DNA of 64,000 bases, from positions 92,456 through 156,455 of the forward strand of contig CAJKRY010000001.1 in assembly GCA_905202485.1 (NCBI GenBank), written 5' to 3'. A program made the translations under genes and the position numbers. Of the stretch, positions 31,206 to 51,554 are shown piece by piece. The notes below the pieces were generated by a model. That model ran no database searches, was not told where the DNA came from, and saw only the letters and a list, made by a program, of their open reading frames with translations. The first letter of the stretch is position 1. Each line of letters begins with the position of its first letter. Source of the stretch: an uncultured Methanomassiliicoccus sp. Lineage in GTDB: Archaea; Thermoplasmatota; Thermoplasmata; Methanomassiliicoccales; Methanomassiliicoccaceae.

Positions 31206-33026
31206 ATGAATAAACAGAGAACAGCCATATTTGTAGTGAGCGTTGCCATGCTGGCATTGGCCATATTCGCTATGCCGAATTTTGAGGACGATTATTCAGA
31301 TGATGTGGTACTCAGCGATGAAGGGGATTCGTACCCCCTGTATGATATCCACAGTGACCTTCACATCTCATACCGCATGAATGAAGATGGCAGCAGTGTT
31401 ACTGTCACGGGGCTGAAACATTCGGATATGACTGACTTAACGATACCAGAAAGTATAAAAACAAAAGACGGAAACTATAAAATCACTGCCATAGGAGATG
31501 ATGCATTCAGTAACATCATGGCTCGTGACCTTAAGAATATAAGAATTGAAGCTCCCAATATTTGCATAGGGAATCTGGCATTCTACAACTGTAACTCTCT
31601 GGAGACTATCTCATTTGCCGGCGGAGTCAGCGAAATAGGAGAACTAGCATTTTTCAACTGCAATTCTTTAAAAGATATTGAGATTAATGGAAATGATCTG
31701 AAAATACACAATTACGCATTCATGAGTTGCTCATCATTGATGTCTCTGAAACTATCAGGCAGTGTCGCTTCAATAGGGCAGTATGTATTCATGGGCTGTA
31801 CGGATCTGCATTCTGTAAACATCACAGGCAGCATAGAGATTATTGACAACAATGCATTTTACAGGTGCAATGGGCTCAAGACTGTAAATCTGCCTGCTGG
31901 GATGAAAAGCATCGGTGACAATGCATTCAAAGAGTGTGGCTCAATTGAGCGTTTTATAATAAATGGAGATAATAAAGTTTCTTTGGGAAACGATGCATTT
32001 TATGATGCTTTTGCCATAGCGGTCATACCTAATGAAAGTCCATATCTGAGAGTGGTGGCGTCATCACGAGCTGAGCTCATTACAAGCGGTATTGAGCATC
32101 CATCGAATAATCATGTACAAGTCTGCGTTGTCATACCTCCAGAAGACACGGTAATTGAAGAACGTGCATTCAGAGATTCCAGATGTGACATTGTAGAAGT
32201 AATAATGCACGACAATATCACAAAGATCGAAATGGAAGCATTCGCTTACACAAGTATATTTAAATTGGATCTTCCAGATTCTCTAACATACATAGGCGAC
32301 AGTGCATTCAAATTGAATGAAATTCACACACTAATTATTCCTGAAAATGTTACATATATCGGAGATTCGGCATTTGATTACTGCACTTATCTTTCATCAG
32401 TGTCGATACCAGAAAGTGTGGAACATATTGGGGCTTCGGCATTCGCACATTCAATATATATGAGAGAAGTTTATTTTTCACATTCAGACATGCTGCCTGA
32501 GATGCCTCACATGAGCATATATGGTGCAAATTCACTATTCTATAACTGCCAAAAAACCACACAGGGAGAAACTCATGAAGGATGGTATCCAACACTTGGC
32601 AATGGCGGTATCAATGTGTATATCAGAAGCGGCGTTAACAATACACAGTCTCTGGATAACCAATTCAACAATTTGAATATCATTGAAGTTAAAGATTATA
32701 TTGTTACATTTGATCCAAACGGCGGAACAATAGATACTATGTTTAAAACTGTAAAAGATGGAGAATGTGTAGTTCCATCTGTACACCCTCCGAGCATACG
32801 GGAAGAATGGGGCGTTTCATACATCTTTAAAGGCTGGTGCTATGGAGATGAACTTTATGATCTTAACACGCCAGTGACTGAAGACATGGTGTTAACTGCT
32901 AGCTGGGAAAGATCTGTGCGCAGCATTTCTGATGATAATAATAACATGATATACTTCCTGATAACGCTTGCAATTATCATCATAGCTGTGATATCAGTTG
33001 CATACATCTACATAAAGAAAAAATAA
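31206..33026 (+). CDS. BspA-like leucine-rich-repeat surface protein with signal peptide and C-terminal TM anchor
   Basis: N-terminal signal (AIFVVSVAMLALAIFA), >12 repeats of the about 23-aa BspA/TpLRR unit (I.D.AF..C..L..I.IP), C-terminal helix LITLAIIIIAVISVAYIYIKKK. Confidence 0.7.
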   Translation: MNKQRTAIFVVSVAMLALAIFAMPNFEDDYSDDVVLSDEGDSYPLYDIHSDLHISYRMNEDGSSVTVTGLKHSDMTDLTIPESIKTKDGNYKITAIGDDAFSNIMARDLKNIRIEAPNICIGNLAFYNCNSLETISFAGGVSEIGELAFFNCNSLKDIEINGNDLKIHNYAFMSCSSLMSLKLSGSVASIGQYVFMGCTDLHSVNITGSIEIIDNNAFYRCNGLKTVNLPAGMKSIGDNAFKECGSIERFIINGDNKVSLGNDAFYDAFAIAVIPNESPYLRVVASSRAELITSGIEHPSNNHVQVCVVIPPEDTVIEERAFRDSRCDIVEVIMHDNITKIEMEAFAYTSIFKLDLPDSLTYIGDSAFKLNEIHTLIIPENVTYIGDSAFDYCTYLSSVSIPESVEHIGASAFAHSIYMREVYFSHSDMLPEMPHMSIYGANSLFYNCQKTTQGETHEGWYPTLGNGGINVYIRSGVNNTQSLDNQFNNLNIIEVKDYIVTFDPNGGTIDTMFKTVKDGECVVPSVHPPSIREEWGVSYIFKGWCYGDELYDLNTPVTEDMVLTASWERSVRSISDDNNNMIYFLITLAIIIIAVISVAYIYIKKK

Positions 33027-34679: not shown

Positions 34680-36134
34680 TTGACTGCTGGACCTCGCGGA
34701 CCGGTAATGCTGCAGGATGTCTGGTTGTTAGAGAAACTAGCACACTTCGACAGAGAAGTGATTCCTGAAAGACGCATGCATGCTAAAGGCAGCGGAGCAT
34801 ACGGTACATTCACAGTAACACACGACATTACAAAATATACAAGAGCCAAAGTCTTCGAACCGGGAAAGAAGACTGATGTCTTTGTCCGTTTTTCTACAGT
34901 AGCCGGTGAAAGGGGCGCTGCAGACGCAGAAAGAGATATCAGAGGATTTGCCTGTAAATTCTATACTGAAGAGGGAAACTGGGATCTGGTTGGAAACAAC
35001 ACGCCTACATTCTTCATCAGAGATGTTCATGACTTCCCAGATCTCAACAGGGCTGTGAAGAGAGATCCAAAAACCAACATGCGTTCAGCACAGAATAACT
35101 GGGACTTCTGGACCATGCTCCCTGAGACTTTTCATCAAACTACAATCGTAATGTCCGACCGCGGAATTCCTGCTTCCTACAGGCACATGCATGTATTCGG
35201 TGAGCATACATTCAGCTTCTACAATGCTAAAAACGAACGCGTCTGGTGCAAGTTCCATCTGCGTACTCAGCAGGGAATCAAAAATCTGACAGATGCAGAA
35301 GCTGAAGAGTTAATCGGCAGAGACAGAGAAAGCCACGGTAGAGATCTGTATGAAGCGATTGAACGCGGAGACTACCCGCGCTGGACTATGTATGTGCAGA
35401 CCATGACTGAAGAGCAGGCAAGAAACCACTACGAGAATCCCTTTGATATTACAAAAGTCTGGAGGCATGCTGAATTCCCACTTCAGGAAGTTGGTGTTCT
35501 GGAACTTAATAGAAACCCTGAGAATTACTTTGCAGAGGTAGAGCAGGCTGCATTCACACCTGCACACGTCGTACCCGGCATAGGATTCTCACCGGACAAA
35601 TTCCTGCAGGGCCGTCTTTTCGTCTACGGAGATGCACAGCGTTACAGGTTAGGTGTAAATTACAATCAGATACCTGTTAACCGTGCAAAGTGCGAAGTTC
35701 ATGACTACCACAGGGATGGAATGATGCGTGTTGACGGCAACTACGGAGCCACTCCTTCCTATACACCAAACAGCCTGGGAGAATGGGCCGCTCAGCCGGA
35801 AGTTATGGAGCCGCCGTTAGATCTCAGCGGAGCCATGTATGCATTTGATCCCAAAGATGATCCTACAGACAACTGCTTCCGCCAGGGAGGCGAACTATAT
35901 CGTCTGATGACTGAAGACAAACGTGCTCTTTTGATTGAAAACACTGCACGCAACATTGCACCTGTTACTCCTAACATCAAATACCGCCACGCTGCCCATT
36001 GTTATCTGGCAGACGAAGAGTACGGGAAGCGCATCACAGAAGCAATGGGCATAAACTTCGAAAAAGTCAAAGAGCTTTCAAAGCTGTCCAATGCTGAACT
36101 GATAAAAGCTACCTTAGATCAGAATATACAGTAA
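34680..36134 (+). CDS. katA: monofunctional heme catalase (small-subunit type); annotated from TTG, true start probably further upstream
   Basis: Catalase core motifs RERIPERVVHAKG-like ([18 protein letters not shown]), FDRERIPE, proximal Tyr region RLFSY-like ([12 protein letters not shown]); in-frame upstream [28 protein letters not shown] is clearly catalase N-terminus but has no ATG/GTG/TTG. Confidence 0.85.
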
Positions 36135-37154: not shown

Positions 37155-38648
37155 TTACATCTTCATTGTTATTTTTTCCCGCTCTTCTTGAGATGCCATA
37201 GCCAACTTTATGACTTTATCGACATCAAGTGACAAAACTTTGGCAACTCTCGTACCGTAGTCTTCATCAACCTTATAGAATAAAGCAGTCTGGCGGTACT
37301 GTAAGCTTTCTTTAGCTCCTCCGAGGTGTCCAGAGACATTTGAAATCAAGTGGTCCTTGTCTTCATCACTTAGAACTCTTGTGTAAAGAGCCCTTGCCTG
37401 AGCAAAATCTACGTCATCTATCGGCACCTGATGACGTTTGGCTTCCTCATTCACCATCGGTGCAGGCGGTGTGTAAGACATGTCTGGAGCAGGAGCATTA
37501 GGAACAGAATTGGGATAATAATTCGGATCAGATCCAGCAATTGCATAGCTCATCGGTCCGTCCCTCTGATAAATATTCATTGCTTTAGGTGCATTGATCT
37601 TTAGCTGCTGGAAGTTTGGACCTAATCTGTAACGCTGAGTATCTGTATATGCAAACATTCTTGACTGCAGCATCCTGTCAGGAGAGGCTCCAATTCCCGG
37701 AACCATGTTGGACGGCGCAAATGCAGACTGCTCTACCTCATCAAAGTAATTATCGGGATTTTTATTGAGAACCAGCTTTCCCAAAGGAATCAGAGGAAAG
37801 TCTCCATGGTACCAGACTTTGGTTGCATCAAAAGGATCAAACTCATATTTCTCAGCCTGTTCAGGAGTCATGATCTGCACATATACAGTCCATGAAGGAT
37901 AGTCTCCTTTTTTGATAGCTTCAAATAAATCAATCGTAGCATGGTCTGCTTCTTTTCCCTTGAGCTCTATTGCCTCGTCTGCCGTAAGCGTCTCATTTCC
38001 CTGATCAGACTTGAAGGTATATTTTATCCAGACGTGTTCATTCTTTTCATTATACCACATGAAGGTATTAGTTCCAAAACCATCCATATGCCTGTAGTTT
38101 TTAGGAGTTCCACGATCTGTAAATAAGATTGTCACCTGATGAACACTTTCAGGAGTTAATGACAGAAAGTCCCAGTACATGTCATAATCGTGGAGATTGT
38201 TTTTAGGATTTCTTTTCTGGCTGTGAATGAAATCAGGAAACTTGATAGCATCCCTTATGAAGAAGACCGGAGTGTTGTTAGCTACAATATCGTAATTTCC
38301 TTCCTCAGTGTAGAACTTCACAGCAAATCCTCTCGGGTCCCTGTCGGCATCTGGACCGCCTCTTTCAGTATTGACAATGGAGAACCTTACAAAAATATCA
38401 GTTTTCTTTCCCACTTCAGAGAGAAAAGCAGCTCTCGTGTACTTGCTCAAGTCATTTGTTACTTCGAAATACCCATGCGCTCCGGTACCTTTTGCATGCA
38501 CAACCCTTTCAGGAATACGCTCCCTATTGAAGTGAGCTAGCTTTTCAGTCAGATGCACATCCTGAATAAGCGTATAACCGCTTGCAGTTATTGATGCCTG
38601 GTCATCATCTACAGGAGAACCACTTGCAGTGGTTAATTTTCCTTTCAT
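37155..38648 (-). CDS. katA: monofunctional heme catalase (second copy)
   Basis: Full N-terminus present (TLIQDVHLTEKLAHFNRERIPERVVHAKGTGAHGYF), distal His/Asn and proximal Tyr regions (RMFAYTDTQRYR); 497 aa. Confidence 0.9.
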   Translation of the reverse strand: MKGKLTTASGSPVDDDQASITASGYTLIQDVHLTEKLAHFNRERIPERVVHAKGTGAHGYFEVTNDLSKYTRAAFLSEVGKKTDIFVRFSIVNTERGGPDADRDPRGFAVKFYTEEGNYDIVANNTPVFFIRDAIKFPDFIHSQKRNPKNNLHDYDMYWDFLSLTPESVHQVTILFTDRGTPKNYRHMDGFGTNTFMWYNEKNEHVWIKYTFKSDQGNETLTADEAIELKGKEADHATIDLFEAIKKGDYPSWTVYVQIMTPEQAEKYEFDPFDATKVWYHGDFPLIPLGKLVLNKNPDNYFDEVEQSAFAPSNMVPGIGASPDRMLQSRMFAYTDTQRYRLGPNFQQLKINAPKAMNIYQRDGPMSYAIAGSDPNYYPNSVPNAPAPDMSYTPPAPMVNEEAKRHQVPIDDVDFAQARALYTRVLSDEDKDHLISNVSGHLGGAKESLQYRQTALFYKVDEDYGTRVAKVLSLDVDKVIKLAMASQEEREKITMKM

Positions 38649-38755
38649 GAAATATCAGTTACAATGCCGAGTATAATCACATTGCTTGAGAAAAAATTAG
38701 TAAAACGGAAGATATCTTCCGCTAAGATCGGATTATATCAAAGACTCCATTGAAT

Positions 38756-39547: not shown

Positions 39548-39659
39548 ATACTCACCATTTTTTACAAATGCAATAGCTAACTGGTATAAAATCACATGGT
39601 ATCAATAATAATTTTAAGAATAAAAGTAAGACTAGAGATGAGACCGCTCATCCTCAGTC

Positions 39660-41012
39660 TCAGATGGTTCTTCTCTTGAGTTTACCGTCTTTGTCCCGAT
39701 AGTATGCAGTACCATACGGCGCATGCAGCAGAGGAATTATATCAGGATCATAATTGCACAGCGTGTTTAATGAATAGATTCCTGTATTAAGAGGATTGTC
39801 TAAATACTCATCCGGTTCGTCACCTGCAAAAAATCTCCAGCCGCTGTCTGGAATGTCTGGATCTGGATCCTCCCGATACATATATCCTATTTTTTCACCG
39901 TTGACCATTATGCGATCTGTGGCTTTACAGCCTAATGGTTCATACCAGTCCAGCAGTATAGATTGAATCTCTTCGCGTGGAATGGCAAGGTTTTTCTTAG
40001 ATTCAGAAACGCACCGACTTGGTCTGTTGAGATCGACAACATAATCAATGCCATCCAACAAATGCAGCAGCTCCTCTTTATTATGACTCAGTTTATATTC
40101 GATCTCTTCACTGTACAGCGGAACTATCTGATAGAAATTGATGCATTCTCCGTTCGGCATAATACATTTGTCTGCTCCTTCATCAAAGTCAACCATGGTG
40201 CAGACGATCATGCCTGAAAGTTTGGTATTCTCTGCTAAAGGCTCATTGTTTGATACAGTATGTCCCCAGGCTAACCAAGTGTTCTGCTCCCCCGGCAGCC
40301 TGGCCATAACTTTCAGCCATTTTACCGGCCAGAACCACATTTCGTTGCTGCTGTTTAAGGGCCAGTCAGGAGGAAGGCAGATAATGAGTTCTGCCCTGTC
40401 AAAGTTTTCTCCTTCGAGATTTAGCGGCACGGTCATGCGATGGGCGCCCATTCCCATAGTTACCAGCGTGTAATAATTACGTTCCGGAGTAGGCTCAATG
40501 ATTGCTATGTCTACACGAATATCCGGAGATACTATCTCATGAAAAACTCTGTTGAAAGAGCCGATGCGTTTTTCGATGTGCCTCTGAACGACTTTAAGCT
40601 GCTCTTCAGTATAGATCTCCGGGTCAAAATTTTCCTGTTTCAAACCAGCCTCTTCCTGCAGCTTTTCTTTGCATATGCCTATGTAATGCATTACGGCCTC
40701 ATCGCTCTGATCCATTTCCCAGGCCTTCTCAAATTCCTCTCTGGAGCTGTCAAAGTTCTCCAAGTAGAAATATGCGTAACCAAGCATATAATGCCAGAAG
40801 TAATCGTCTTTTCCCTCGTCCTCAATTAAAAGAAGTTGTTCAACAGCCTCATCATATCTCTTTAAATCGTTGAGGGCCCTCGCAAGATGAAAAATCACGT
40901 CGTAATCCATCTCTTCTTCAACCATTAATGAAATTTCATCCAGGATCTTCTGGAACTCCTTTTCCTCATGCCATTTATTTAATTTATAAAGAGTTTCTTT
41001 GTCCATCGTCAT
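39660..41012 (-). CDS. immunity-protein-like: shared helical N-module + SUFU-like domain + Imm33/DUF2185-like C-terminal domain
   Basis: Central region YYTLVTMGMGAHRM...WPVKWLKVMARLPGEQNTWLAWGHTV parallels SUFU motifs (human SUFU: HYISFGLSDLYG...TWPAELMQGLARY...GDHV); C-terminal GWRFFAGDEPDEY... resembles Imm33; N-terminal about 100 aa homologous to two neighbours. Confidence 0.55.
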   Translation of the reverse strand: MTMDKETLYKLNKWHEEKEFQKILDEISLMVEEEMDYDVIFHLARALNDLKRYDEAVEQLLLIEDEGKDDYFWHYMLGYAYFYLENFDSSREEFEKAWEMDQSDEAVMHYIGICKEKLQEEAGLKQENFDPEIYTEEQLKVVQRHIEKRIGSFNRVFHEIVSPDIRVDIAIIEPTPERNYYTLVTMGMGAHRMTVPLNLEGENFDRAELIICLPPDWPLNSSNEMWFWPVKWLKVMARLPGEQNTWLAWGHTVSNNEPLAENTKLSGMIVCTMVDFDEGADKCIMPNGECINFYQIVPLYSEEIEYKLSHNKEELLHLLDGIDYVVDLNRPSRCVSESKKNLAIPREEIQSILLDWYEPLGCKATDRIMVNGEKIGYMYREDPDPDIPDSGWRFFAGDEPDEYLDNPLNTGIYSLNTLCNYDPDIIPLLHAPYGTAYYRDKDGKLKRRTI

Positions 41013-41018
41013 TCCTTC

Positions 41019-42503
41019 TTATCTTAATATATAATCATCTGAAAAATTAAATGATACCATCATGACTGATCCGCTTATCTCAAGGTCATCCCCTTTTTCC
41101 TTTGCATCACAGATCGCACTATAAACTGAACTTATATAGACATAAGATGAAAATGTATCATTCAAGAAAAGATTGCTGCTAAATCCATTTATTAGCGCTT
41201 TTTGAATTACATAATAACTTGCAATCTGCGTTTTATAAACCTCTATACTTTTTCTATTCCTGTAGATCAATATTGATTCAGGAGAATGAAGATATTCAAA
41301 TGCATTTTCAGCACACATTTCCGGAATGAAAAACTGCAGCTCTTCAGCAAGATTTGAATCCTGAAGCTCTTCCGTCAGTTTTTCCAGATAATGCTGGTAA
41401 TCATCGTCAGATGCACATTGCTCAAAGAGTCTGACTGCTTTTACAGTAGCGTCTTCCAGATCTTTCTCGCTGTAAGGGTATTCCACATAAGTCCCCTCAT
41501 CCTGTGTGATGAAGAAAAACTGTTTCTTGGAACTGAACTCATTTGTTTCCCATTTAGAAGCTATTTCTGAAACTATGCTGCTGAGCTCTTCGCTGACAAT
41601 GTTATTAACACGGCATTCTGCTGTAATTTCATCTCCATTTTTAGCAGCATATACTTTGACATATGCAAATTTTTGATTTCCAAGGCGTTTGGCAATTCCG
41701 CTTTTCAACAGACTCCAGAATTCATCAATGTCGCCGCCCTCTGGGTTTTTGCCCATGCCGACAATATCTGATTTGTATGCGTGCCAGCTGTGTTTACTGC
41801 CTGCAAACTCTGTAACTAACGTTTCTGAGTTCTCTCCGGCCTTCATGATTCTGATGCCGTCCAAGACTGAGAATAGAAAACTCCCTTCTGCTAGATTAAT
41901 TGCCTTCTTCGGCGTATCTCCCAAGGCAACCGAGCACTCAAACAGTTCTCTGTCCCATGAACTGCAGTTTAGAGTAAAATACAAAACGGCCATGTTTTCC
42001 GTCAGTTCCCCTACTTCAGAAGAAATGGTTAAATCCCATTCAGGAATGAATATATTGCCTTTTTTGATCAGATTAGTTTCAGCAATCAGCTCATGAAGAC
42101 CTTCAAGAACATACTGCCGGGGGTCATCGGGGGCAGAAGAATCATCTGTACGCTTAAGATAGTAGTTACAGTCTTCCAGAAGTTCTTTGGCATCTTTGTC
42201 ATCAGGATTTAATTCAAGAACACACTCAAACTCTTTTTTAGCTTCCAGATCATTTCCCAAAAAATAATAAGCGTATCCCAGACGGTAATGCCACAAATCG
42301 TCGTCTTTTCCTTCTTCGTTTACAGAAAGCAGAAGTTTAACAGCATTTTCATAGTCTTCTAAATTATTATAAGCTCTTGCCAGTAAGAGAATGAGATCAT
42401 AATTTCTTTCAGATTCTGGAATATCTAGAATAGAGTCCACGATCTTTTGGTGTTCTTCAGATTTATGCCAGCCGTCTAACTGCTCGATGAATTCTGATGA
42501 CAT
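41019..42503 (-). CDS. paralogous N-module protein with unrelated C-terminal domain (function unknown)
   Basis: N-terminus GWHKSEEHQKIVDSI...LARAYNNLEDYENAVKLLLSVNEEGKDDDLWHYRLGYAYYFL aligns with the N-termini of 39660..41012 and 43247..44743; remainder has no recognisable motif. Confidence 0.5.
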   Translation of the reverse strand: MSSEFIEQLDGWHKSEEHQKIVDSILDIPESERNYDLILLLARAYNNLEDYENAVKLLLSVNEEGKDDDLWHYRLGYAYYFLGNDLEAKKEFECVLELNPDDKDAKELLEDCNYYLKRTDDSSAPDDPRQYVLEGLHELIAETNLIKKGNIFIPEWDLTISSEVGELTENMAVLYFTLNCSSWDRELFECSVALGDTPKKAINLAEGSFLFSVLDGIRIMKAGENSETLVTEFAGSKHSWHAYKSDIVGMGKNPEGGDIDEFWSLLKSGIAKRLGNQKFAYVKVYAAKNGDEITAECRVNNIVSEELSSIVSEIASKWETNEFSSKKQFFFITQDEGTYVEYPYSEKDLEDATVKAVRLFEQCASDDDYQHYLEKLTEELQDSNLAEELQFFIPEMCAENAFEYLHSPESILIYRNRKSIEVYKTQIASYYVIQKALINGFSSNLFLNDTFSSYVYISSVYSAICDAKEKGDDLEISGSVMMVSFNFSDDYILR

Positions 42504-42519
42504 TGTAATTTCCTCCTGA

Positions 42520-43245
42520 TCAATAATCCAGCCTTATTGGAACTTTATTCTCTTTAGCAAACAAAACTGCTTTGTAAAATATGCAGTATGCAAATTTAGA
42601 CAAGGCGTCAAAATCAAAAGTATCTTTATCGGCATCAGAAGCTACCTCAGTATTCAACCAGCTGAGAATGGTCTCTTCATCCGCATTCCATCTCATTTTA
42701 TTCATATATTGAAGATCAGATTCCAATTGTTCCACTGTGGACATGTTAGCCTCTTTACCAGTTGGAAATATGTAACTGAATGACATGCATCCCTCAAACG
42801 GAACCCACATTTCAATTCCATTCAGAAACGGATTTGTATATGATTCGTTTATAACAAAAGTCTGCACTACAGGATCATCATTCCAATCACTGGATTTTTC
42901 ATAGAATTTAGGAACTTCTTTTCCAGAATACAGGCATGCACTTAAAATGACTAAAGCACCATAACCATCCCAGCCTGGTTTATCAGTGTAATATTCTTTT
43001 TCATTATTTTCTTCCCAAGACTTAAACAAAATGTCTTTGTCAGACAGCCCGCTTGTCAAAGCCTCCATCCAGAGTTCAACTGAGTGCTGGACTTCTTCAG
43101 CATCTATGTTTTCATTTCTCATTTCACCATTTGGTGTTATGATGTCACAGCGGATGTTATTTTGTTCAGACCACTGTTGGACAGTAGTTTTCCAGTTGCG
43201 GGTGTAATACCTTGTCAATGTACCAGCATATATATCTAGACCCAT
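42520..43245 (-). CDS. hypothetical protein within the immunity-like operon
   Basis: 241 aa, acidic, Trp-rich, no TM or signal; start codon 1 nt from upstream gene stop. Confidence 0.4.
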   Translation of the reverse strand: MGLDIYAGTLTRYYTRNWKTTVQQWSEQNNIRCDIITPNGEMRNENIDAEEVQHSVELWMEALTSGLSDKDILFKSWEENNEKEYYTDKPGWDGYGALVILSACLYSGKEVPKFYEKSSDWNDDPVVQTFVINESYTNPFLNGIEMWVPFEGCMSFSYIFPTGKEANMSTVEQLESDLQYMNKMRWNADEETILSWLNTEVASDADKDTFDFDALSKFAYCIFYKAVLFAKENKVPIRLDY

Positions 43246-43246
43246 T

Positions 43247-44743
43247 TTATAACCTCATTTCAGAACTAAGATTAACTATGTTTCCATCTGGACAAAAATC
43301 GGCTAAATAAAATTCAAATTGATAATTTTTTAACAAACTGTCAATCCTTTTGAAAAATTCAGTCATGTTGTAAATCAGCAGATCTGCATACTCATACATA
43401 CTGCCGCCGGCGCTTCCCAGAGACATTCCGATTTCTCTGCCGCTCCCTTTCTCCCCAAGAACTTCTTTTATCAGATAATCTTCAAAATCATATCTGAGAT
43501 CAAACAGCTTGTCTTCATCCATTTCCATCGGCCATGTGTAGAATAGGTAAACAAGCTTAGCTCCGCAGCTCTCCATATCTGCGTATGTATCTTTTACATC
43601 AGAATGATATTCAGCAACTGAGTTTAAAAGAGATGTTAAACCGCTGAGTATGTCATATCTCAATTTGTCAGTGTCAGCATTTCCAAAGGCATATGCAACA
43701 CGGATGTCGCTGGGATTCTCGATCATTTCTTTTCCCGATGATTTTAGAATGTCGGATATTTTCTCACCCATCTGATCAATGGGAAACATATCATCCGTTG
43801 GAGAACGCAATAATGATACTGTGCTTATATAAAGTCTCAATAGATTTTCACTGAATAATTCTTTCAGCATCTTAGCAAATGTAATGTTTGCTTCACTGTC
43901 TTCAATTGATTGAAAATCTTCTGAATAAAAACACAAGTTAAATTTGTCAGATTCATAATTGAATGATATTTTAATATTTTTTATCGGAAATCCATTGACT
44001 GAAAGGTCAGAATTATAACTATTTAGTTTAGGTGCAGATAAGATAATATTCCATTTATTCTGAATGTTCTTTGGCGCCCTGAAGATAAGATATGGAAGCA
44101 GGTAGTGAAGATGACTGCTGCCTCTTAAAACAAATATGAGTTTGAATCCTTTTTCAATGAAACATTGAATGTTTTTAGTTATTAAATCCGTGCCTTCTGA
44201 AAGAAAAGCTGCGACTTCTGAATTACATGCACCATTTTCAGCAAATTCCGATAATTTTGCTTCATGGTCACAAAACCACTTCCAGAACGAAGATACTCTG
44301 TCAGAGAATTGATTCGACGGAATGAGTTCATGTCTGGAAACAAATCTCTCTGACAATTTTTCTAGATGAAGTTTGACATAATGATGAATATGACAGAATT
44401 CTACAAAGTCTGAAGCATAATCCCCTTCAGGGTTCAATTCAAATGCTTTATCAATCTCTTCATTTACTTTTGTCATCTCGTTTGTAAAATAATACGCCTG
44501 ACCCAGCATGAAATGCCACATATAATCTTCAGCACCTTTATCGCTGACTGAAAGGAGGCAATCTATGGCTTCTCGATACTTGTAAGTGTGCAGATACGCC
44601 TCAGCTAAGAGAGTTACAAGACCATAGTCCAATTTATAATCTGAAATTCTTGTAATCACTCTAACTATGCTGCAATAATCTCCGTTTCTGCGCAGATCAT
44701 CCAAACGTTGACAAAACTCCTGTTTCACCTGAATCAATTTCAT
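43247..44743 (-). CDS. paralogous N-module protein with a third, distinct C-terminal domain
   Basis: N-terminus ...YGLVTLLAEAYLHTYKYREAIDCLLSVSDKGAEDYMWHFMLGQAYYF aligns with the other two; first gene of the 4-gene minus-strand operon. Confidence 0.5.
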   Translation of the reverse strand: MKLIQVKQEFCQRLDDLRRNGDYCSIVRVITRISDYKLDYGLVTLLAEAYLHTYKYREAIDCLLSVSDKGAEDYMWHFMLGQAYYFTNEMTKVNEEIDKAFELNPEGDYASDFVEFCHIHHYVKLHLEKLSERFVSRHELIPSNQFSDRVSSFWKWFCDHEAKLSEFAENGACNSEVAAFLSEGTDLITKNIQCFIEKGFKLIFVLRGSSHLHYLLPYLIFRAPKNIQNKWNIILSAPKLNSYNSDLSVNGFPIKNIKISFNYESDKFNLCFYSEDFQSIEDSEANITFAKMLKELFSENLLRLYISTVSLLRSPTDDMFPIDQMGEKISDILKSSGKEMIENPSDIRVAYAFGNADTDKLRYDILSGLTSLLNSVAEYHSDVKDTYADMESCGAKLVYLFYTWPMEMDEDKLFDLRYDFEDYLIKEVLGEKGSGREIGMSLGSAGGSMYEYADLLIYNMTEFFKRIDSLLKNYQFEFYLADFCPDGNIVNLSSEMRL

Positions 44744-44870
44744 ATCAGGACATTAGTATTTAGAAAATGGTATTCCCTCATGAATATTGAATGCGGATAA
44801 CGTTGCAGAGACAATATTATAACAAAGTATCCAATACCCTGGCAGAAATGCTTTAACGATTAAAACGGGT

Positions 44871-46211
44871 ATGGCCATGCAGAGGGATTTAACAAACGGT
44901 AGTGTTACCAAAACAATGCTGCTATTTGCCTGGCCGATGATTTTAGGCAATCTTCTGCAACAAGTTTACAATGTCGCTGATACCCTGATAGTTGGAAGAT
45001 GCATCGGCCCTGACGCTCTGGCTGCCGTGGGGTCTTCTTTTGCATTAATGGTTTTTCTGACATCTATCATCATAGGACTGTGTATGGGAAGCGGAGTCGT
45101 TTATTCCATATTTTTTGGTGCCAGAGAGAAAGAAAAACTGAAATCCAGTTTCTTCATGTCATTTGTATTCATTGCCGTTGTTACCATTGTAATCCAAATT
45201 GCAACATTGTGCCTGGTTGATCCGATACTCAGCGCACTGCATATTCCGTCTGAAGCATACAGCGCAACTAAAAGCTACCTTACAATAACCCTGTATGGCG
45301 TTATTTTCATTTTTGTATACAATTACTTTACCTCAGTACTGAGAGGCATTGGCAACTCCACAACCCCTCTGATATTTTTAGGAGTGGCAGTAGTTCTGAA
45401 TGTCGCTCTTGATCTGATACTGATAATATCATTCGACATGGGTGTAGAAGGAGCCGCCATTGCAACTGTGATTTCTCAGGCTGTGTCTGCAGCATCTATT
45501 GCCATATACTGCATACTGAAGACCCCTGAATTAAGATTGAAAAGAAAACACCTGAAATTTGAAAAATCGATATTGAATAAGATCGTACAATATTCATCTT
45601 TGACTTGTATACAGCAGTCGATTATGAACTTCGGGATTCTGATGGTTCAAGGGCTGGTCAACAGTTTCGGAGTTTCGGTAATGGCCGCATTTGCAGCCGC
45701 AGTGAAAATCGACTCCTTTGCATACATGCCTGTCCAGGATTTTGGAAATGCATTTTCTACTTACGTAGCACAAAATTACGGAGCTAAGAAATCAGAAAGA
45801 ATACATGAAGGAATAAAATCTGCAATAAAGGTATCTTTAATCTTCTGCATCATCATTTCAGCAATAGTTGTGATATTCGCCAAACCTCTAATGACATTAT
45901 TTGTGAGTCCAGAAGATGTTGAAATTATTGCAATCGGCGTTCAGTACCTCAGAATAGAAGGAGCCTGCTACTGCGGAATAGGCTGCCTCTTCCTTCTTTA
46001 CGGTCTGTACCGCGGAGTAGGAAAACCAGCGATATCTATTGTATTAACTGTTATTTCACTGGGAACCAGAGTACTGCTGGCGTACGTCTTGGCGGCGATG
46101 CCCTCAATCGGCCTGGTAGGAATCTGGTGGGCGATACCGATAGGCTGGGTGTTAGCAGACATCGCTGGAATTATGTACTATATACGAAATAAAAAATTGA
46201 TAACTGTGTAG
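44871..46211 (+). CDS. MATE family efflux transporter
   Basis: 12 TM, LLFAWPMILGNLLQQVYNVADTLIVGR N-terminus typical of MATE/NorM. Confidence 0.85.
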   Translation: MAMQRDLTNGSVTKTMLLFAWPMILGNLLQQVYNVADTLIVGRCIGPDALAAVGSSFALMVFLTSIIIGLCMGSGVVYSIFFGAREKEKLKSSFFMSFVFIAVVTIVIQIATLCLVDPILSALHIPSEAYSATKSYLTITLYGVIFIFVYNYFTSVLRGIGNSTTPLIFLGVAVVLNVALDLILIISFDMGVEGAAIATVISQAVSAASIAIYCILKTPELRLKRKHLKFEKSILNKIVQYSSLTCIQQSIMNFGILMVQGLVNSFGVSVMAAFAAAVKIDSFAYMPVQDFGNAFSTYVAQNYGAKKSERIHEGIKSAIKVSLIFCIIISAIVVIFAKPLMTLFVSPEDVEIIAIGVQYLRIEGACYCGIGCLFLLYGLYRGVGKPAISIVLTVISLGTRVLLAYVLAAMPSIGLVGIWWAIPIGWVLADIAGIMYYIRNKKLITV

Positions 46212-46262: not shown

Positions 46263-47000
46263 TTAGTCTTCATCACCGTATGCAAGATCAATATCTATGA
46301 ACTGGATTACCAGCTGGCATATTTTTCCGTCTGCATCATATCCAAAGTACACAGGATAAGTGCCGTCCCCAAATCCTGTTTGAAAAATCGGCAGATGGTA
46401 ATTTGTTCCGGGTATTACCCAGTTTATCCAGTCCCCTTCTTTCCGCTGATGCTTCGGGTTTTCAGCATAGCTCTTTGCAAAGATCGCTGCGAAGTAATCA
46501 TCATAGATGTTTTTACCTGGATTGTTCTCAGACCAGGTGTCATAAAATTCACAGAATATATCTCTTATAGCAACATCGCATATACACGCTAAGCCTGCAT
46601 CTACATTGAAACCGAAATATTCATCATCTTCAAGTTCTGAGAGATTTTCATTCCCGATGAGCGCTTCTTCAAAAACCACAGCTTCTTTTTTAGTGAATTG
46701 AACACGTACTGCAGCATATCGTGAACAGTCAGAATCGTCTCCGCAGACTACACAGGCAACGGCATGAAACTCACCAGGAGGCACCTCTGTAAAATATGGT
46801 TCTTCTTCGCAGTCGAGATAGCACAGCGGATCCCTTACCAGGATTATTCCAGTAGGGATGGATACCAGCCCGAAGTCCAGCAGATCTAATTTCTTACCTG
46901 CCATTTCTGACAGGGTAAAGTAGTCATTTAAGGGAGCTGGACATGCTAATTTTTCACGATGTTTGTTAAATGAACTGATCCACTCTGCAGTAGGTTTCAT
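46263..47000 (-). CDS. DUF4241-like protein
   Basis: C-terminal FQTGFGDGTYPVYFGYDADGKICQLVIQFIDID resembles the DUF4241 signature; 245 aa, cytoplasmic. Confidence 0.45.
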   Translation of the reverse strand: MKPTAEWISSFNKHREKLACPAPLNDYFTLSEMAGKKLDLLDFGLVSIPTGIILVRDPLCYLDCEEEPYFTEVPPGEFHAVACVVCGDDSDCSRYAAVRVQFTKKEAVVFEEALIGNENLSELEDDEYFGFNVDAGLACICDVAIRDIFCEFYDTWSENNPGKNIYDDYFAAIFAKSYAENPKHQRKEGDWINWVIPGTNYHLPIFQTGFGDGTYPVYFGYDADGKICQLVIQFIDIDLAYGDED

Positions 47001-47048: not shown

Positions 47049-47726
47049 TCATGTCGTTTCGTTCAGTTTAAACTTGTTTTTTTCAAATTCAATCAAACCC
47101 TCGTTTCTCAGCTTAGACAACTCATTAGACATGGCGCTTCTGTCTACAGAGAGATAGTCGGCAAGCTGCTGCCTGTTGAAGGGTATTTCAAATTCGGAAC
47201 TGCGGGATTTCTTAGACTGCTCTGAAAGATATGAAAGAAGCTTTTCTCTGATGCTGCGCTTTGAAGTATGCTCTATTCTTTTAGTCAGCACGAGATTTTT
47301 TTCTGCGAGACTCCAGAGCAGGTTACGAATAAGAATCGAATGAAATTCACATGCTGAAGTACAGACATTCATGATTTTATTTACATTAACGAAAAGAATG
47401 TCAGTGCGCTCTGTAGCAATCACACTCACTTCCAATCTTTCGGTGCCTAAACATGCATAAGCTTCAGCAAAAATCTGACCGTTGCTCAGGCTGGTGAGAA
47501 TGTTGTCGTTTCCCCAGAAATCCTCTTTCACAATATGCACATTTCCAGTCAGAACGATGCCGATGTTGTGTACGATGTCACCGCTCCGCAATATAACTGA
47601 ATCCTTCTGGTATCTTTTAACAGTGGCACCCATGCAGTCTAAGATAGATAGAATCTCATCATCATTCATGCTGGAAAATAAAGGAGAATTTCGTATCAAA
47701 TGCAGATATTTCTTCATCATATTCAC
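47049..47726 (-). CDS. Crp/Fnr-family transcriptional regulator (HcpR-like candidate)
   Basis: cNMP-binding beta-barrel region and C-terminal HTH SRQQLADYLSVDRSAMSNELSKLRNEGLI; divergent from ferredoxin-hcp. Confidence 0.8.
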   Translation of the reverse strand: MNMMKKYLHLIRNSPLFSSMNDDEILSILDCMGATVKRYQKDSVILRSGDIVHNIGIVLTGNVHIVKEDFWGNDNILTSLSNGQIFAEAYACLGTERLEVSVIATERTDILFVNVNKIMNVCTSACEFHSILIRNLLWSLAEKNLVLTKRIEHTSKRSIREKLLSYLSEQSKKSRSSEFEIPFNRQQLADYLSVDRSAMSNELSKLRNEGLIEFEKNKFKLNETT

Positions 47727-47792: not shown

Positions 47793-48476
47793 ATGATGCG
47801 AAAGATAGTGAAGATTAATGAGGAAAAATGCAACGGCTGCGGCATATGTGCAGATGCATGCCATGAAGGTGCCATTCAGATTATAAACAACAAAGCAAAA
47901 TTGATCAAAGATGATTACTGCGACGGCTTGGGAGACTGCCTACCGGGCTGTCCGACTGGGGCCATATCCATTGAAGAAAGAGAAGCTGCAGAGTACGACG
48001 AAAAAGCTGTGAAATCTCATCTGCAGAATAAAGAGAAAAAACTCGGCTGCGGATGTTCTGATGAAAATGTAAAAATTATTGACAATTTAAGCAACGAACG
48101 CTGTCTGAACCAGTGGCCGGTACAGATTAAATTAGTTCCGGTAAACGCCCCATACTTTGAGAATTCGGATCTGCTGATCGCTGCTGACTGCACTGCCTTT
48201 GCATATGCAGATTTTCACAAGGACTTTATCAAAAACTGCATTGCATTAGTAGGCTGTCCCAAACTGGATTCAGTAGATTACAGTGAAAAAATTTCTGAAA
48301 TTATAAAAAATAACAAGATCAACAGCATCAAAGTCGTAAAAATGGAGGTGCCATGTTGTAGCGGTTTAGAGAATGCAGTAAAGAAGGCTCTGCAGAACAG
48401 CGGCAAAAACATTCCTCTGAATGTCGTAACAATATCAATTAAGGGTAAAATAATTAAAAATATTGCAGGTGATTAA
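47793..48476 (+). CDS. 4Fe-4S dicluster domain protein (ferredoxin-like N-terminus plus extra domain)
   Basis: CNGCGICADACHEGAI and CDGLGDCLPGCPTGAI motifs; translationally adjacent to hcp. Confidence 0.6.
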   Translation: MMRKIVKINEEKCNGCGICADACHEGAIQIINNKAKLIKDDYCDGLGDCLPGCPTGAISIEEREAAEYDEKAVKSHLQNKEKKLGCGCSDENVKIIDNLSNERCLNQWPVQIKLVPVNAPYFENSDLLIAADCTAFAYADFHKDFIKNCIALVGCPKLDSVDYSEKISEIIKNNKINSIKVVKMEVPCCSGLENAVKKALQNSGKNIPLNVVTISIKGKIIKNIAGD

Positions 48477-48477
48477 A

Positions 48478-50040
48478 ATGGATACGAAGATGTTCTGTTT
48501 TCAGTGTGAACAAACTGCCGGATGTAAAGGGTGCACTGGCGAAAGCGGAGTATGCGGAAAGCCTTATGCAGTGGCAAATGCACAAGACGAGCTGACACAA
48601 GTGTTGATCAGCCTTTCACAGTCTCTTGATGGAAAAACACCTGATGATGAACAGCGCCGCCTCATGCTTGAAGGACTGTTCAGCACAGTCACTAACGTCA
48701 GCTTTGACGGTGAAAAGGTATCTGCATTAACCAATGAAATTAAATCGCTGTGTTCCTGCAGCAGCTGCGAACATCATGCATTCCAACTATGGACTGAAGA
48801 GGAAGATATCCGCTCTCTCAAATCACTTATTCTATTCGGCCTGAGGGGAATGGCAGCCTATGCACACCATGCGATGATTCTTGGGTATCAGGACAATGAA
48901 GTTTCGGACTTCTTTTTTGAAGGCTTAAGAGCCGTGGGAGATCAGAAAGCAGACATGAGCGGACTGCTGCTTGTTGTAATGGAAGTCGGCAGAATCAACC
49001 TCAAATGCATGGAACTGCTTGATAAAGCCAATACTGAAACGTATGGAAACCCTGTGCCGACAACTGTTTCACTTACTGTAGACAAGGGTCCGTTTATCAT
49101 TGTGACGGGACATGACTTGAAAGATCTGAAGCTTCTTCTTGAACAGACGGAAGGAAAAGGAATTAATATTTACACACACGGAGAAATGCTGCCTGCTCAT
49201 GCATATTCAGAACTTAAGAAATACAGCCATCTCAAAGGCAATTTCGGTACTGCCTGGCAGAATCAGAGAAAAGAATTCTCCGATATTCCGGCACCTATTC
49301 TGTTTACAACGAACTGCCTGATGCCGCCTAAGCAGAACTATGCAGACCGTATATTCACGACAGGAGTCGTGACATTTCCTGGAGCCGTGCACATCAATGA
49401 AAATAAGGATTTTACGCCGGTCATCGAAAAAGCGCTGGAACTCGGAGGTTATGCTAATGATGTAGAGTTCACAGGCATAAACGGCGGTAAAGAAGTCACA
49501 ACTGGTTTTGGACATGCCGCTGTGCTATCAATTGCAGATAGGATTATTGATGCCATCCACAGCGATGCAATCAAACATTTCTTCCTGGTAGCAGGATGCG
49601 ACGGAGCAAAATCTGGACGCAGTTACTACACAGACTTTGTCAAACTGACACCGCCTGACTCCATAGTGCTGACCTTAGCATGCGGCAAATACCGGTTCAA
49701 TGATCTTGATCTAGGCACTATTGCAGGCATCCCCAGACTGTTGGATATGGGACAGTGCAATGATGCATACAGTGCAATACGTGTAGCTGTGGAGCTTGCT
49801 AATGCCCTGGACTGCGGCGTAAACGATCTGCCGCTTTCATTTGTCATTTCCTGGTATGAACAGAAGGCAGTCAGTATTCTGCTGACTCTGCTGTATCTCG
49901 GAATCAAAAACATCCGCCTGGGTCCATCTATTCCGGCATTCATCTCCCCAAACGTTCTGGCATACCTTGTTGAGAACTTTGGCATTGCTCCGACAACTAC
50001 ACCAAAAGAAGATATGAAAGACCTGCTCCGACAGACCTGA
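48478..50040 (+). CDS. hcp: hybrid cluster protein / hydroxylamine reductase
   Basis: N-terminal Cys cluster MFCFQCEQTAGCKGCTGESGVCGK and full-length Hcp/prismane similarity. Confidence 0.9.
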   Translation: MDTKMFCFQCEQTAGCKGCTGESGVCGKPYAVANAQDELTQVLISLSQSLDGKTPDDEQRRLMLEGLFSTVTNVSFDGEKVSALTNEIKSLCSCSSCEHHAFQLWTEEEDIRSLKSLILFGLRGMAAYAHHAMILGYQDNEVSDFFFEGLRAVGDQKADMSGLLLVVMEVGRINLKCMELLDKANTETYGNPVPTTVSLTVDKGPFIIVTGHDLKDLKLLLEQTEGKGINIYTHGEMLPAHAYSELKKYSHLKGNFGTAWQNQRKEFSDIPAPILFTTNCLMPPKQNYADRIFTTGVVTFPGAVHINENKDFTPVIEKALELGGYANDVEFTGINGGKEVTTGFGHAAVLSIADRIIDAIHSDAIKHFFLVAGCDGAKSGRSYYTDFVKLTPPDSIVLTLACGKYRFNDLDLGTIAGIPRLLDMGQCNDAYSAIRVAVELANALDCGVNDLPLSFVISWYEQKAVSILLTLLYLGIKNIRLGPSIPAFISPNVLAYLVENFGIAPTTTPKEDMKDLLRQT

Positions 50041-50157: not shown

Positions 50158-50781
50158 ATGGAGAAATATGAAAAGTATCTGCACATGCTGGTGGATGAAA
50201 TCCACTCCACAATTTTTGCTACAGTAGACAGCAGCGGAAATCCTGTGACTTGTGCAATAGACATAATGCTAGCAGATGAAGATGGGCTATACTTTCTGAC
50301 CGCCAAAGGAAAAGCATTCTATGAACGCCTTGTAGCTCATCCGATTATATCGCTTACAGGAGTAAAAGGCAAAGACACCATGTCTTCAAAGTCTGTGACA
50401 ATCTGCGGAAAGGTAAAGGAGATTGGAGACGGCCTCCTTTCCGAAATTTTCGCAAAGAATCAGTACATGGCTGATATATATCCTGAAGAAAAAAGCCAGA
50501 AAGCATTGACTGTCTTTCAGATTTATGAAGGTGAGGGGGAGTTCTTTGATCTCAGTGTAAAGCCGATATTCAGAGAAAAGTTTTCATTTGGAAATACTGC
50601 CGTCAAGGAAACAGGATACTTTGTCACAGGAAAATGCGACGGCTGCGGATTATGCGTCGATATCTGTCCTCAGAAATGCATTGATGCATCATGTATTCCA
50701 TTTAGAATTGAAGAGGAACACTGCCTGCATTGCGGCAGATGTGCTGAAGTATGCAACCAGCAGGCCATAGAAAGAAGATGA
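50158..50781 (+). CDS. pyridoxamine-5'-phosphate-oxidase-like FMN-binding split-barrel domain fused to 2x[4Fe-4S] ferredoxin
   Basis: N-terminal PNPOx-like fold (IFATVDSSGNPVTCAIDIM), C-terminal CDGCGLCVDICP and CLHCGRCAEVCN. Confidence 0.6.
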   Translation: MEKYEKYLHMLVDEIHSTIFATVDSSGNPVTCAIDIMLADEDGLYFLTAKGKAFYERLVAHPIISLTGVKGKDTMSSKSVTICGKVKEIGDGLLSEIFAKNQYMADIYPEEKSQKALTVFQIYEGEGEFFDLSVKPIFREKFSFGNTAVKETGYFVTGKCDGCGLCVDICPQKCIDASCIPFRIEEEHCLHCGRCAEVCNQQAIERR

Positions 50782-51554
50782 TAAAAATGAAACAGGAAAA
50801 ACGCCTCCAATGGCTGATTGAATATCTTCTGCAAGAAAATGAAGACTATCGAAAAATACCGTCGTCTGAGTATGAAAGAAAACAGTTGCTGCGGGCCTTG
50901 ATGAATGTAAGGATGCCAAACGGAATTGACGAAAAATTCTTAGAAATACAGGATGAGTATCTCTCAGAAGAACTGTCAAAGAAGACGATTGCTTCATTGA
51001 AGAATATTAGCCCTGTGGATGAGCATATTTACCTCTGGAAAGGAGATATTACCACACTGGAAGTGGATGCCATTGTTAATGCTGCCAACAGCTCGCTTTT
51101 AGGATGCTTCGTTCCCGGGCATGCCTGTATTGATAATGCAATTCATTCTGCAGCAGGAGTGCAACTCAGGCTTGCATGCGATGAAATCATAACGAAGCAG
51201 GGAAAGAAAGAACCCACTGGAACATCTAAGATAACTTTTGCATACAATCTGCCGTGCCGTTATGTCATTCATACGGTCGGACCGATAATTCAAAATGAAG
51301 TCACAAAGAGAGAATGCGATCTGCTCGAATCCTGCTACATGTCGTGTCTGAATCTTGCTGCTGATCATGATGTAAAAAGCATAGCCTTATGCTGTATATC
51401 TACGGGAGAGTTTCATTTCCCCAATGAGCTTGCAGCCGAGATTGCTGTGCACTCTGTGAAAAAATTCCTAAATAATCATAAAATGGACGTAATATTCAAT
51501 GTTTTCAAAGAAGTGGACTATGATATCTACAGACGATTACTCAATACAAATTGA
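50778..51554 (+). CDS. macrodomain protein (MacroD-type ADP-ribosyl hydrolase, SirTM-associated type)
   Basis: GDITTLEVDAIVNAANSSLLG...GACIDNAIHSAAG macrodomain motifs after an about 90-aa helical N-extension; ATG overlaps upstream stop (ATGA). Confidence 0.75.
   Translation: MIKMKQEKRLQWLIEYLLQENEDYRKIPSSEYERKQLLRALMNVRMPNGIDEKFLEIQDEYLSEELSKKTIASLKNISPVDEHIYLWKGDITTLEVDAIVNAANSSLLGCFVPGHACIDNAIHSAAGVQLRLACDEIITKQGKKEPTGTSKITFAYNLPCRYVIHTVGPIIQNEVTKRECDLLESCYMSCLNLAADHDVKSIALCCISTGEFHFPNELAAEIAVHSVKKFLNNHKMDVIFNVFKEVDYDIYRRLLNTN

Follow-up and report, generated by a model that had tools for sequence, protein, structure and literature searches.

What are four closely packed genes, three of which begin with the same helical module and then continue into unrelated domains, doing in the genome of a gut methanogen? 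The genes lie on the minus strand of a 64,000-nt stretch of DNA from an uncultured Methanomassiliicoccus species, which was analysed at its whole length and is referred to here as the window. They are named A, B, C and D in order of transcription (Table 1). A sequence-only reading of the locus had described four minus-strand open reading frames (ORFs) with gaps of 1, 16 and 6 nt, and these are present as described, between A and B, B and C, and C and D, respectively. The answer proposed here is that the array is probably a small polyimmunity operon of bacterial origin, which has become fixed in Methanomassiliicoccus and would encode four inhibitors, each neutralising a different incoming toxin.

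The relationship between the N-terminal modules, or heads, of A, C and D is well supported. In pairwise BLASTP comparisons, the heads of C and D share 43% identity over 112 aa (E=3e-24), those of A and C 34% over 119 aa (E=1e-18), and those of A and D 29% over 136 aa (E=1e-15), and no pair shows significant BLASTP similarity past about residue 125. The N-terminal similarity claimed earlier is thus significant and corresponds to a module of ~115 aa (E from 1e-15 to 3e-24), in whose alignment the shared motifs LARAYNN, EGKDD..WHY.LGYAYYF and ELNP, also quoted earlier, are found again. The claim that the C-terminal parts are mutually unrelated was likewise borne out. Profiles built from homologues of the C-terminal domain of A (A-dom), B, DUF6348, the C tail, SUFU and Imm33 were compared all against all by hhalign, and the probability was <1% for each pair.

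The shared module is a domain of three tetratricopeptide repeats (TPR). The Pfam TPR_8 model matches C with 32.0 bits and D with 30.1 bits, above its gathering cutoff of 25.7. For A, an AlphaFold2 (AF2) model based on 14 homologues (predicted local distance difference test, pLDDT, 84.6; predicted template modelling score, pTM, 0.74) places seven helices in residues 1-133, forming a three-repeat TPR domain with a capping helix. A family hidden Markov model (HMM), trained mainly on 165 other heads, nearly all from other organisms, with the three window heads included, scores the C head at 167, the D head at 139 and the A head at 116 bits, and detects no further head copy in the window. The family carries its own signature, LARAYNN ... 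WHYRLGYAYYY ... ELxPxDxDA, located at the extreme N-terminus. Its most conserved polar residues, R43, N46, N47 and R74, lie on the A-helices of the second and third repeats, and in a set of 159 other heads each is found in 90% or more. C retains all four of them, D retains two (N47D and R74M being changed), and A retains none, with R43E, N46L, N47H and R74M in the family numbering. The head fold resembles the peptide-binding three-TPR domains of Hop TPR1, YrrB and Hsp90-peptide binders. However, sequence identity to Hop TPR1/TPR2A, RPAP3, CHIP and B. subtilis YrrB is 10-20%, and, unlike these proteins, the head has a fixed N-terminal position on immunity domains.

The extent of the head family was assessed by an exhaustive profile search with the three heads against 1.84 billion cluster representatives, which returned 882 proteins at E<=1e-10, including 34 at E<=1e-30. 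Among the best 150 of these 882, the module is full-length in 139, and in 124 of the 139 it is N-terminal; 99 of the 150 continue into other domains, 40 are stand-alone heads of less than 200 aa, and 12 contain more than one head. The top-scoring representative (P0151, 356 aa) consists of three tandem heads and nothing else, making it a head-only repeat protein.

The fusion partners of the head point to its likely setting. With generic TPR models set aside, a Pfam scan of 79 fused head representatives identified SUFU in 17, DUF4261 in 7, SUKH_6/SMI1_KNR4 in 7, Imm51 in 6, DUF5713 in 5, SUKH_5 in 5, DUF6348 in 4, Imm33 in 3 and DUF4253 in 3. SUFU, SUKH, Imm51 and Imm33 have been designated 'immunity proteins' of polymorphic toxin systems by comparative genomics. 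Most partners of the head therefore appear to be polymorphic-toxin immunity domains, the remainder being DUF families that accompany them. This supports the earlier comparison of the array with polymorphic-toxin immunity systems, in which a constant adaptor is joined to variable domains, since the commonest partners among the 79 scanned proteins are recognised immunity domains. No head was found by a scan of viral contigs.

Among the four array members, D is the one that qualifies through recognised immunity families, and C, A and B do so only through fusion or neighbourhood association. In D, the head (residues 1-118) is followed by a SUFU domain (residues 165-331, nt 40020-40520, E=6e-46) and an Imm33 domain (residues 362-447, nt 39672-39929, Pfam E=2.5e-34), so that the SUFU/Imm33-like domain recognised from the sequence proves to be both families in succession. 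By its predicted domain content, D is a two-domain 'polyimmunity protein', a term for a single polypeptide with at least two immunity domains. The same architecture occurs in a metagenome-assembled genome (MAG) of a gut Ruminococcaceae (L045; 448 aa, 43% identity) and in P0181 (50% identity). The C-terminal part of C had been counted as unassigned, which is incorrect: behind the head (residues 1-118), C contains DUF6348 (residues 148-334, Pfam E=1e-40) and a conserved 160-aa tail (residues 335-494). This combination recurs in P0202, P0239, P0287 and a Peptococcaceae genome (L046).

No Pfam or NCBIfam family was detected in residues 125-498 of A. In its AF2 model, the C-terminal part forms a two-lobed alpha/beta domain of ~370 aa, the A-dom, which was found in about 30 other collected head-bearing proteins. 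In P0174, P0154, P0173, P0168 and a 1105-aa protein of L046, it is joined with SUFU and Imm33. B also has no Pfam or NCBIfam family. At least 485 homologues of it were collected, nearly all ~40% identical and 250-260 aa long, the named ones being from Clostridiales, and both ends of the family are invariant (MGLDxYxG..RYY at the N-terminus and ..LDY at the C-terminus). Four distinct genomic contexts of B homologues were examined. Two are immunity-type arrays, with the gene orders Imm51, DUF6881, DUF2695, stand-alone head, DUF7832, RtcB, Barstar, B, DUF4261 and SUFU-DUF7832-DUF4253, RtcB, B, and in the other two the gene stands alone among housekeeping genes. In the two Clostridiales genomes concerned (L001 6104-8780 and L090 4763-6780), the B homologue lies immediately downstream of an RtcB RNA ligase gene, once with Barstar between them, an adjacency that hints at a module countering RNase toxins. 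A-dom and the B family are thus candidate new immunity modules. The earlier suggestion that unassigned C-terminal domains could be of this kind gains from the SUFU/Imm33 fusions of A-dom and from the neighbours of B.

Two further ideas about B were considered. The ..LDY end might have been a free tail bound by the TPR heads. This was rejected, as in the AF2 model these residues belong to a beta-strand of the core (E237-240) that pairs with the strand at the N-terminus, and many B homologues have no head-bearing neighbours. Structural alignment of B with YfbM (DUF1877, PDB 1ryl) and the Neisseria DNA-mimic protein DMP12 (PDB 3w1o; PMC3643605) covers only about 90-108 of its 241 residues at 7-10% identity, and no sequence-level relation to these proteins was found, which is too weak for membership.

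The bacterial distribution of these components bears on the origin of the array. One genome per GTDB species was scanned with 7 close head sequences as query, and 246 head-encoding loci were confirmed. Among the best 80 of these, 78 are bacterial and 2 belong to Methanomassiliicoccus MAG species. The bacterial heads in this subset are mostly from Paenibacillus, with further ones from Bacillus, Cohnella and Priestia, from gut Clostridia (Lachnospiraceae, Oscillospiraceae, Butyricicoccus, Allofournierella, Soleaferrea and Peptococcaceae) and from Bacteroides. In the gut Peptococcaceae MAG L046, a gene for head, DUF6348 and tail is followed by the 1105-aa gene product, with the order head, A-dom, head, SUFU and Imm33, and by a stand-alone head; these adjacent genes carry the same domain set as the window array. 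Additionally, four Bacteroides genomes contain adjacent genes of the types head+A-dom and ..head+SUFU. The content of guanine and cytosine (GC) is 0.357 in A, 0.375 in B, 0.387 in C and 0.432 in D, compared with 0.436±0.030 in other window genes, so that the impression of an AT-richer array is correct for A, B and C and not for D. The bacterial distribution of the head, the bacterial counterparts of the array, the relatives of B and of the nearby DUF4241 gene, and the low GC of A to C together indicate a transfer of the array from gut bacteria into the Methanomassiliicoccus lineage. This transfer is not recent, since B, C and D reach only 40-50% identity, and A about 30%, with their best bacterial matches.

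The three head-bearing genes had also been described as adjacent paralogues. In the sense of a local tandem duplication this does not hold, as each head is nearer to bacterial heads than to those of its neighbours. The C head is 52-57% identical to heads of other organisms that are followed by SUFU, by A-dom or by no tail, compared with 42% identity to D and 34% to A. Head similarity is therefore independent of tail type, which suggests shuffling across the family at large. The possibility that A, C and D were duplicated in place within the archaeon and then exchanged their cassettes was rejected on the basis of these head identities and of architectures that pre-existed in bacteria. Instead, A, C and D appear each to have arrived, or to have long pre-existed, as complete architectures.

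Once acquired, the array seems to have been maintained. It is intact and in the order A-B-C-D in at least four species, namely that of the window, Methanomassiliicoccus intestinalis (L005-L007) and the species represented by L008 and L009. The window neighbourhood is syntenic with contigs bearing the M. intestinalis gene A protein, and the window contains the archaeal hallmark genes for FttA/aCPSF1, FEN1 and a wyosine radical-SAM enzyme, which identifies the host as a methanogenic archaeon of the human gut. Between the window and L009, protein identity is 68% for D, 56% for C, 53% for B and about 34% for A, and 60-87% for flanking genes. The ratio of nonsynonymous to synonymous substitution rates (dN/dS), computed for the window against M. 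intestinalis or L008, is 0.07 for D, 0.08-0.10 for C, 0.20-0.22 for B and 0.18-0.26 for A, with flanking genes at 0.02-0.06. All four array genes are under purifying selection, A and B more relaxed, and values of 0.07-0.26 imply that the array is maintained by selection. The synonymous component (dS) against M. intestinalis is 0.38-0.54 for A and B and 0.78 for the neighbouring MatE gene, and at least 1.6 or saturated for C, D, catalase, Crp and DUF4241; the low dS over A-B-MatE suggests recent interspecies recombination or gene flow there. A, which shares 81% identity with a protein assigned to 'Candidatus Methanomassiliicoccus intestinalis', is the fastest-evolving member. The A-type protein at the corresponding position in L009 keeps a canonical head and is 42-44% identical to bacterial A-types, compared with 33-37% to the window A. 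For this reason, A in the window lineage is either a strongly accelerated orthologue or a replacement.

The gene layout and the protein properties are consistent with a coordinated set of cytoplasmic proteins. The spacers of 1-16 nt and the Shine-Dalgarno (SD)-like motifs GGAGG between B and C and GAAGGA between C and D suggest that A-B-C-D is transcribed as a single mRNA. Scans with bacterial consensus models remained at chance level for promoters (21 vs 16.1±3.0) and for terminators (4 vs 3.3±1.6, missing the spacer 3' of D); these consensuses do not apply to archaea, and the putative operon boundaries are therefore drawn from spacing. All four proteins are acidic, with isoelectric points (pI) of 4.35-4.9 and net charges of -20 to -47, and no hydrophobic segment was found in A, B, C or D, from which soluble, cytoplasmic proteins are expected.

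In the proposed mechanism, A, B, C and D would inhibit incoming protein toxins stoichiometrically, with a different toxin bound by each. D, with SUFU and Imm33, would neutralise DNase toxins of the HNH/EndoVII fold. Imm-SuFu and Imm33 are linked chiefly to nucleases of this fold, including Tox-HNH, Tox-DHNNK and NGO1392-like toxins (PMC3482391). Such toxins attack DNA and would therefore be equally harmful to an archaeon and a bacterium. C (through DUF6348 and its tail), A (through A-dom) and B would each cover other toxins, in the case of B perhaps nucleic-acid-targeting ones, and the acidity of all four proteins fits, if weakly, inhibitors of nucleic-acid-binding toxins. The canonical head, defined by R43, N46, N47 and R74, would be a family-specific docking module that probably clamps a short peptide. 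If this peptide were a feature common to many toxins, or belonged to a host hub, inhibitor domains would be interchangeable on one adaptor; we infer such a peptide-clamp adaptor with a toxin feature, a host hub or self-association as its possible ligand. No toxin domain was found in roughly 30 scanned window ORFs of at least 129 aa, and no toxin gene adjoins the array in any of the four species or at the bacterial counterpart loci. The lack of a toxin gene with the operon would make A to D 'orphan' immunity proteins, which may protect the archaeon from toxins of co-resident bacteria. A bolder version of this proposal is offered tentatively, with clearly less than even confidence: gut methanogens would be real targets of contact-dependent or secreted bacterial toxins, mainly nucleases, the array would be an archaeal acquired defence, the head a universal toxin adaptor, and A-dom and B new immunity families.

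The closest known counterparts come from bacterial polymorphic toxin systems, for which Zhang et al. 2012 (Biol Direct 7:18; PMC3482391) described both polyimmunity loci and polyimmunity proteins. As in those loci, the genes of the array follow one another on one strand at very short distances, uninterrupted by a toxin gene or toxin cassette. Unrelated immunity-type domains stand side by side, SUFU and Imm33 share one polypeptide, and TPR repeats are among the fusion partners of immunity domains given there. Its size agrees with loci encoding polyimmunity proteins, typically of 2-4 genes, and operons for such proteins are usually without toxin genes (PMC3482391). In having an archaeal host the array differs from them: archaea lack most immunity superfamilies, and extended loci occur only in four bacterial phyla (PMC3482391). 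A-dom and the B family, which match no Pfam model, appear to lie outside the published Imm catalogue, and that work does not treat the three-TPR head as a family of its own (PMC3482391). The locus would thus be of a known kind, polyimmunity proteins in small toxin-less loci, in a new, archaeal host.

A second parallel is found in gut bacteria themselves. Ross and colleagues reportedly described, in Nature in 2019, groups of orphan immunity genes in gut Bacteroidales, termed acquired interbacterial defence (AID) clusters. The array resembles these clusters as a set of horizontally acquired orphan immunity genes in a gut organism, with presumed protection against the toxins of neighbours. In contrast, AID clusters lie on mobile elements with integrases, vary between strains and encode immunity proteins to type VI secretion system effectors whose protective effect is experimental, whereas the array is chromosomal, fixed over species and archaeal, with a predicted protective role. 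The concept of acquired interbacterial defence is also mentioned in PMC10470768. Literature searches on immunity proteins in Methanomassiliicoccales, and on DUF4241, DUF6348, DUF4261, DUF5713 and DUF4253, returned nothing relevant.

The surroundings of the array include a possible additional member. In L008 (4714-5451) and L009 (4816-5574), the gene immediately 5' of A, in the same orientation, encodes a DUF4241 protein, and L008 and L009 share the order DUF4241-A-B-C-D with M. intestinalis (L005-L007). A MatE efflux gene (44871-46211, plus strand) separates DUF4241 from A in the window, as it does in M. intestinalis on the strand opposite to A, and no such gene occupies that position in L008 and L009, which implies an insertion or deletion splitting an ancestral five-gene block. 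Outside the archaea, the DUF4241 protein has its closest relatives in Fusobacterium and Phocaeicola (56%). In Fusobacterium vincentii (L088 6264-7756), the DUF4241 gene begins 8 nt after a Fic/DOC gene. DUF4241 may thus be a fifth, horizontally acquired array member, or an antidote to a Fic-type toxin; its annotated plasmid contexts were uninformative.

Further away, two catalase genes, at 34680-36134 (plus strand) and 37155-38648 (minus strand), flank a radical-SAM gene in this strict anaerobe. A hybrid-cluster protein (48463-50040), a Crp/Fnr regulator (47049-47726) and several ferredoxin-type genes are also near the array, whose surroundings look like an oxidative or nitrosative stress island. 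M. intestinalis carries a ~3.4-kb block between its flavodoxin/Fer4 and catalase genes (L005 16183-19504, corresponding to window 38649-38755), with a 454-aa protein, a FecCD permease and a split ABC ATPase, and this block is absent from the window. A Macro-domain gene (50751-51554, plus strand) overlaps by 56 nt a 290-aa ORF without a Pfam family (51499-52371, plus strand), and the pair is kept in M. intestinalis (L005 2330-3800). The 606-aa BspA-type LRR_5 protein at 31206-33026 (plus strand; low GC, 0.393) is of a type characteristic of host-associated surface or adhesin-like proteins and was probably also acquired horizontally.

Table 1. Coordinates in the window of the array genes and associated features.
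Feature	Coordinates	Strand	Description
Gene A	43247..44743	-	498 aa; divergent TPR head + A-dom, ORF
Gene B	42520..43245	-	241 aa; headless acidic protein, ORF
Gene C	41019..42503	-	494 aa; TPR head + DUF6348 + 160-aa tail
Gene D	39660..41012	-	450 aa; TPR head + SUFU + Imm33
TPR head of A	44372..44743	-	about residues 1-124
A/MatE intergenic region	44744..44870	.	127 bp, AT-rich, divergent; TATA-like TTATAATATT; presumed promoter
Spacer 3' of D	39596..39659	-	64 nt; imperfect inverted repeat then T-rich tract; possible operon end
DUF4241 gene	46263..47000	-	Pfam DUF4241 E=2e-72; possible fifth member

Several observations weigh against a polyimmunity operon. The 'immunity' labels of SUFU and Imm33 rest mainly on comparative genomics, so toxin neutralisation by A to D is a prediction, and the folds of A-dom and DUF6348 have no assignment. 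We know of no demonstration that bacterial polymorphic toxins are delivered into archaea. The loss of signature residues in A and D may mean that the ancestral function of the head is relaxed in the archaeon. The gene content of the array is constant over four species, unlike the strain-variable polyimmunity loci, and the genes examined up to about 10 kb to the left and right of it yielded no recombinase; a XerC/D recombinase beside polyimmunity loci is reported 'in several cases' and is not obligatory (PMC3482391). The conserved setting among catalase, hybrid-cluster protein, Crp/Fnr and ferredoxin genes may also be compatible with a stress-related role. Such a role is the main rival explanation, if a rather improbable one. 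It holds that the TPR-headed proteins were recruited after transfer as interaction scaffolds, for example as adaptors or co-chaperones sequestering archaeal proteins in oxidative or nitrosative stress. The stable embedding of an array of constant content in that neighbourhood, the purifying selection on it and the divergence of the A and D heads from the canonical residues would all fit, and SUKH and SuFu have been adapted secondarily to other protein-protein interactions (PMC3482391), to which recruitment here can be likened, as in their co-option in eukaryotes. However, the bacterial counterparts lie in unrelated neighbourhoods without a stress theme, no conserved functional partner is evident, and four different immunity-type modules in one operon are predicted by an immunity model and not by a single housekeeping role.

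Other explanations fit the data less well. The proteins could guard against the archaeon's own polymorphic toxins, encoded elsewhere in its genome; some methanoarchaea do carry polymorphic toxin systems (PMC3482391), and the toxin survey covered 64 kb of the host genome, so that distant toxin genes are possible. Such cognate immunity is nevertheless distinctly unlikely given that toxin domains are missing in and beside the operon in all four species and that bacterial loci of the same architectures likewise have no adjacent toxins, as is usual for polyimmunity-protein operons. The sequence-only reading had also raised defence-system sensors, and in that case the TPR head would sense an invader in an antiviral or nucleoside triphosphate (NTP)-dependent conflict system, with the variable C-terminal domains as effectors. 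TPR arrays do serve as sensors in several defence systems, and weak Pfam TPR-S matches occur in 4 of the 79 fused representatives. In PADLOC-DB 2.0, however, no system-specific match was obtained; D gave a weak generic match to 'TPR repeats containing protein' (3e-6), and A, B, C and the DUF4241 protein gave none. No NTPase, nuclease, TIR, protease or other effector domain was found, the C-terminal partners are inhibitor-type immunity domains, and no viral carriers of the head were seen, which leaves this alternative without support and makes it very unlikely. Decay of passenger DNA, in which the array would be a neutral remnant of a past transfer with no present function, could account for the low GC of A, B and C relative to surrounding genes, for the relaxed dN/dS of A and B relative to the flanks, and for an A head devoid of signature residues. 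It is hardly credible for four ORFs that are intact in four species differing by up to 45-65% at the protein level, with dN/dS well below 1.

The preferred reading, a polyimmunity operon directed against incoming toxins, concerns an arrangement that is well known in bacteria and rarely seen in archaea. To our knowledge, the action of bacterial polymorphic toxins on archaea, and archaeal resistance to them, are essentially unstudied. The analysis delineates a large family of three-TPR heads placed mostly before immunity domains, a ~370-aa A-dom without a Pfam model and a 240-260-aa B family that is abundant in gut Clostridia. D offers direct material for assays against HNH-type toxins of gut Bacillota and Bacteroidota. 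Even if the immunity reading were wrong, the locus would still clearly document the passage of genes from bacteria to an archaeon in the gut. If it is right, a bacterial-type immunity operon that has stayed intact under purifying selection in several species of a human-gut methanogen would be indirect evidence for cross-domain antagonism.

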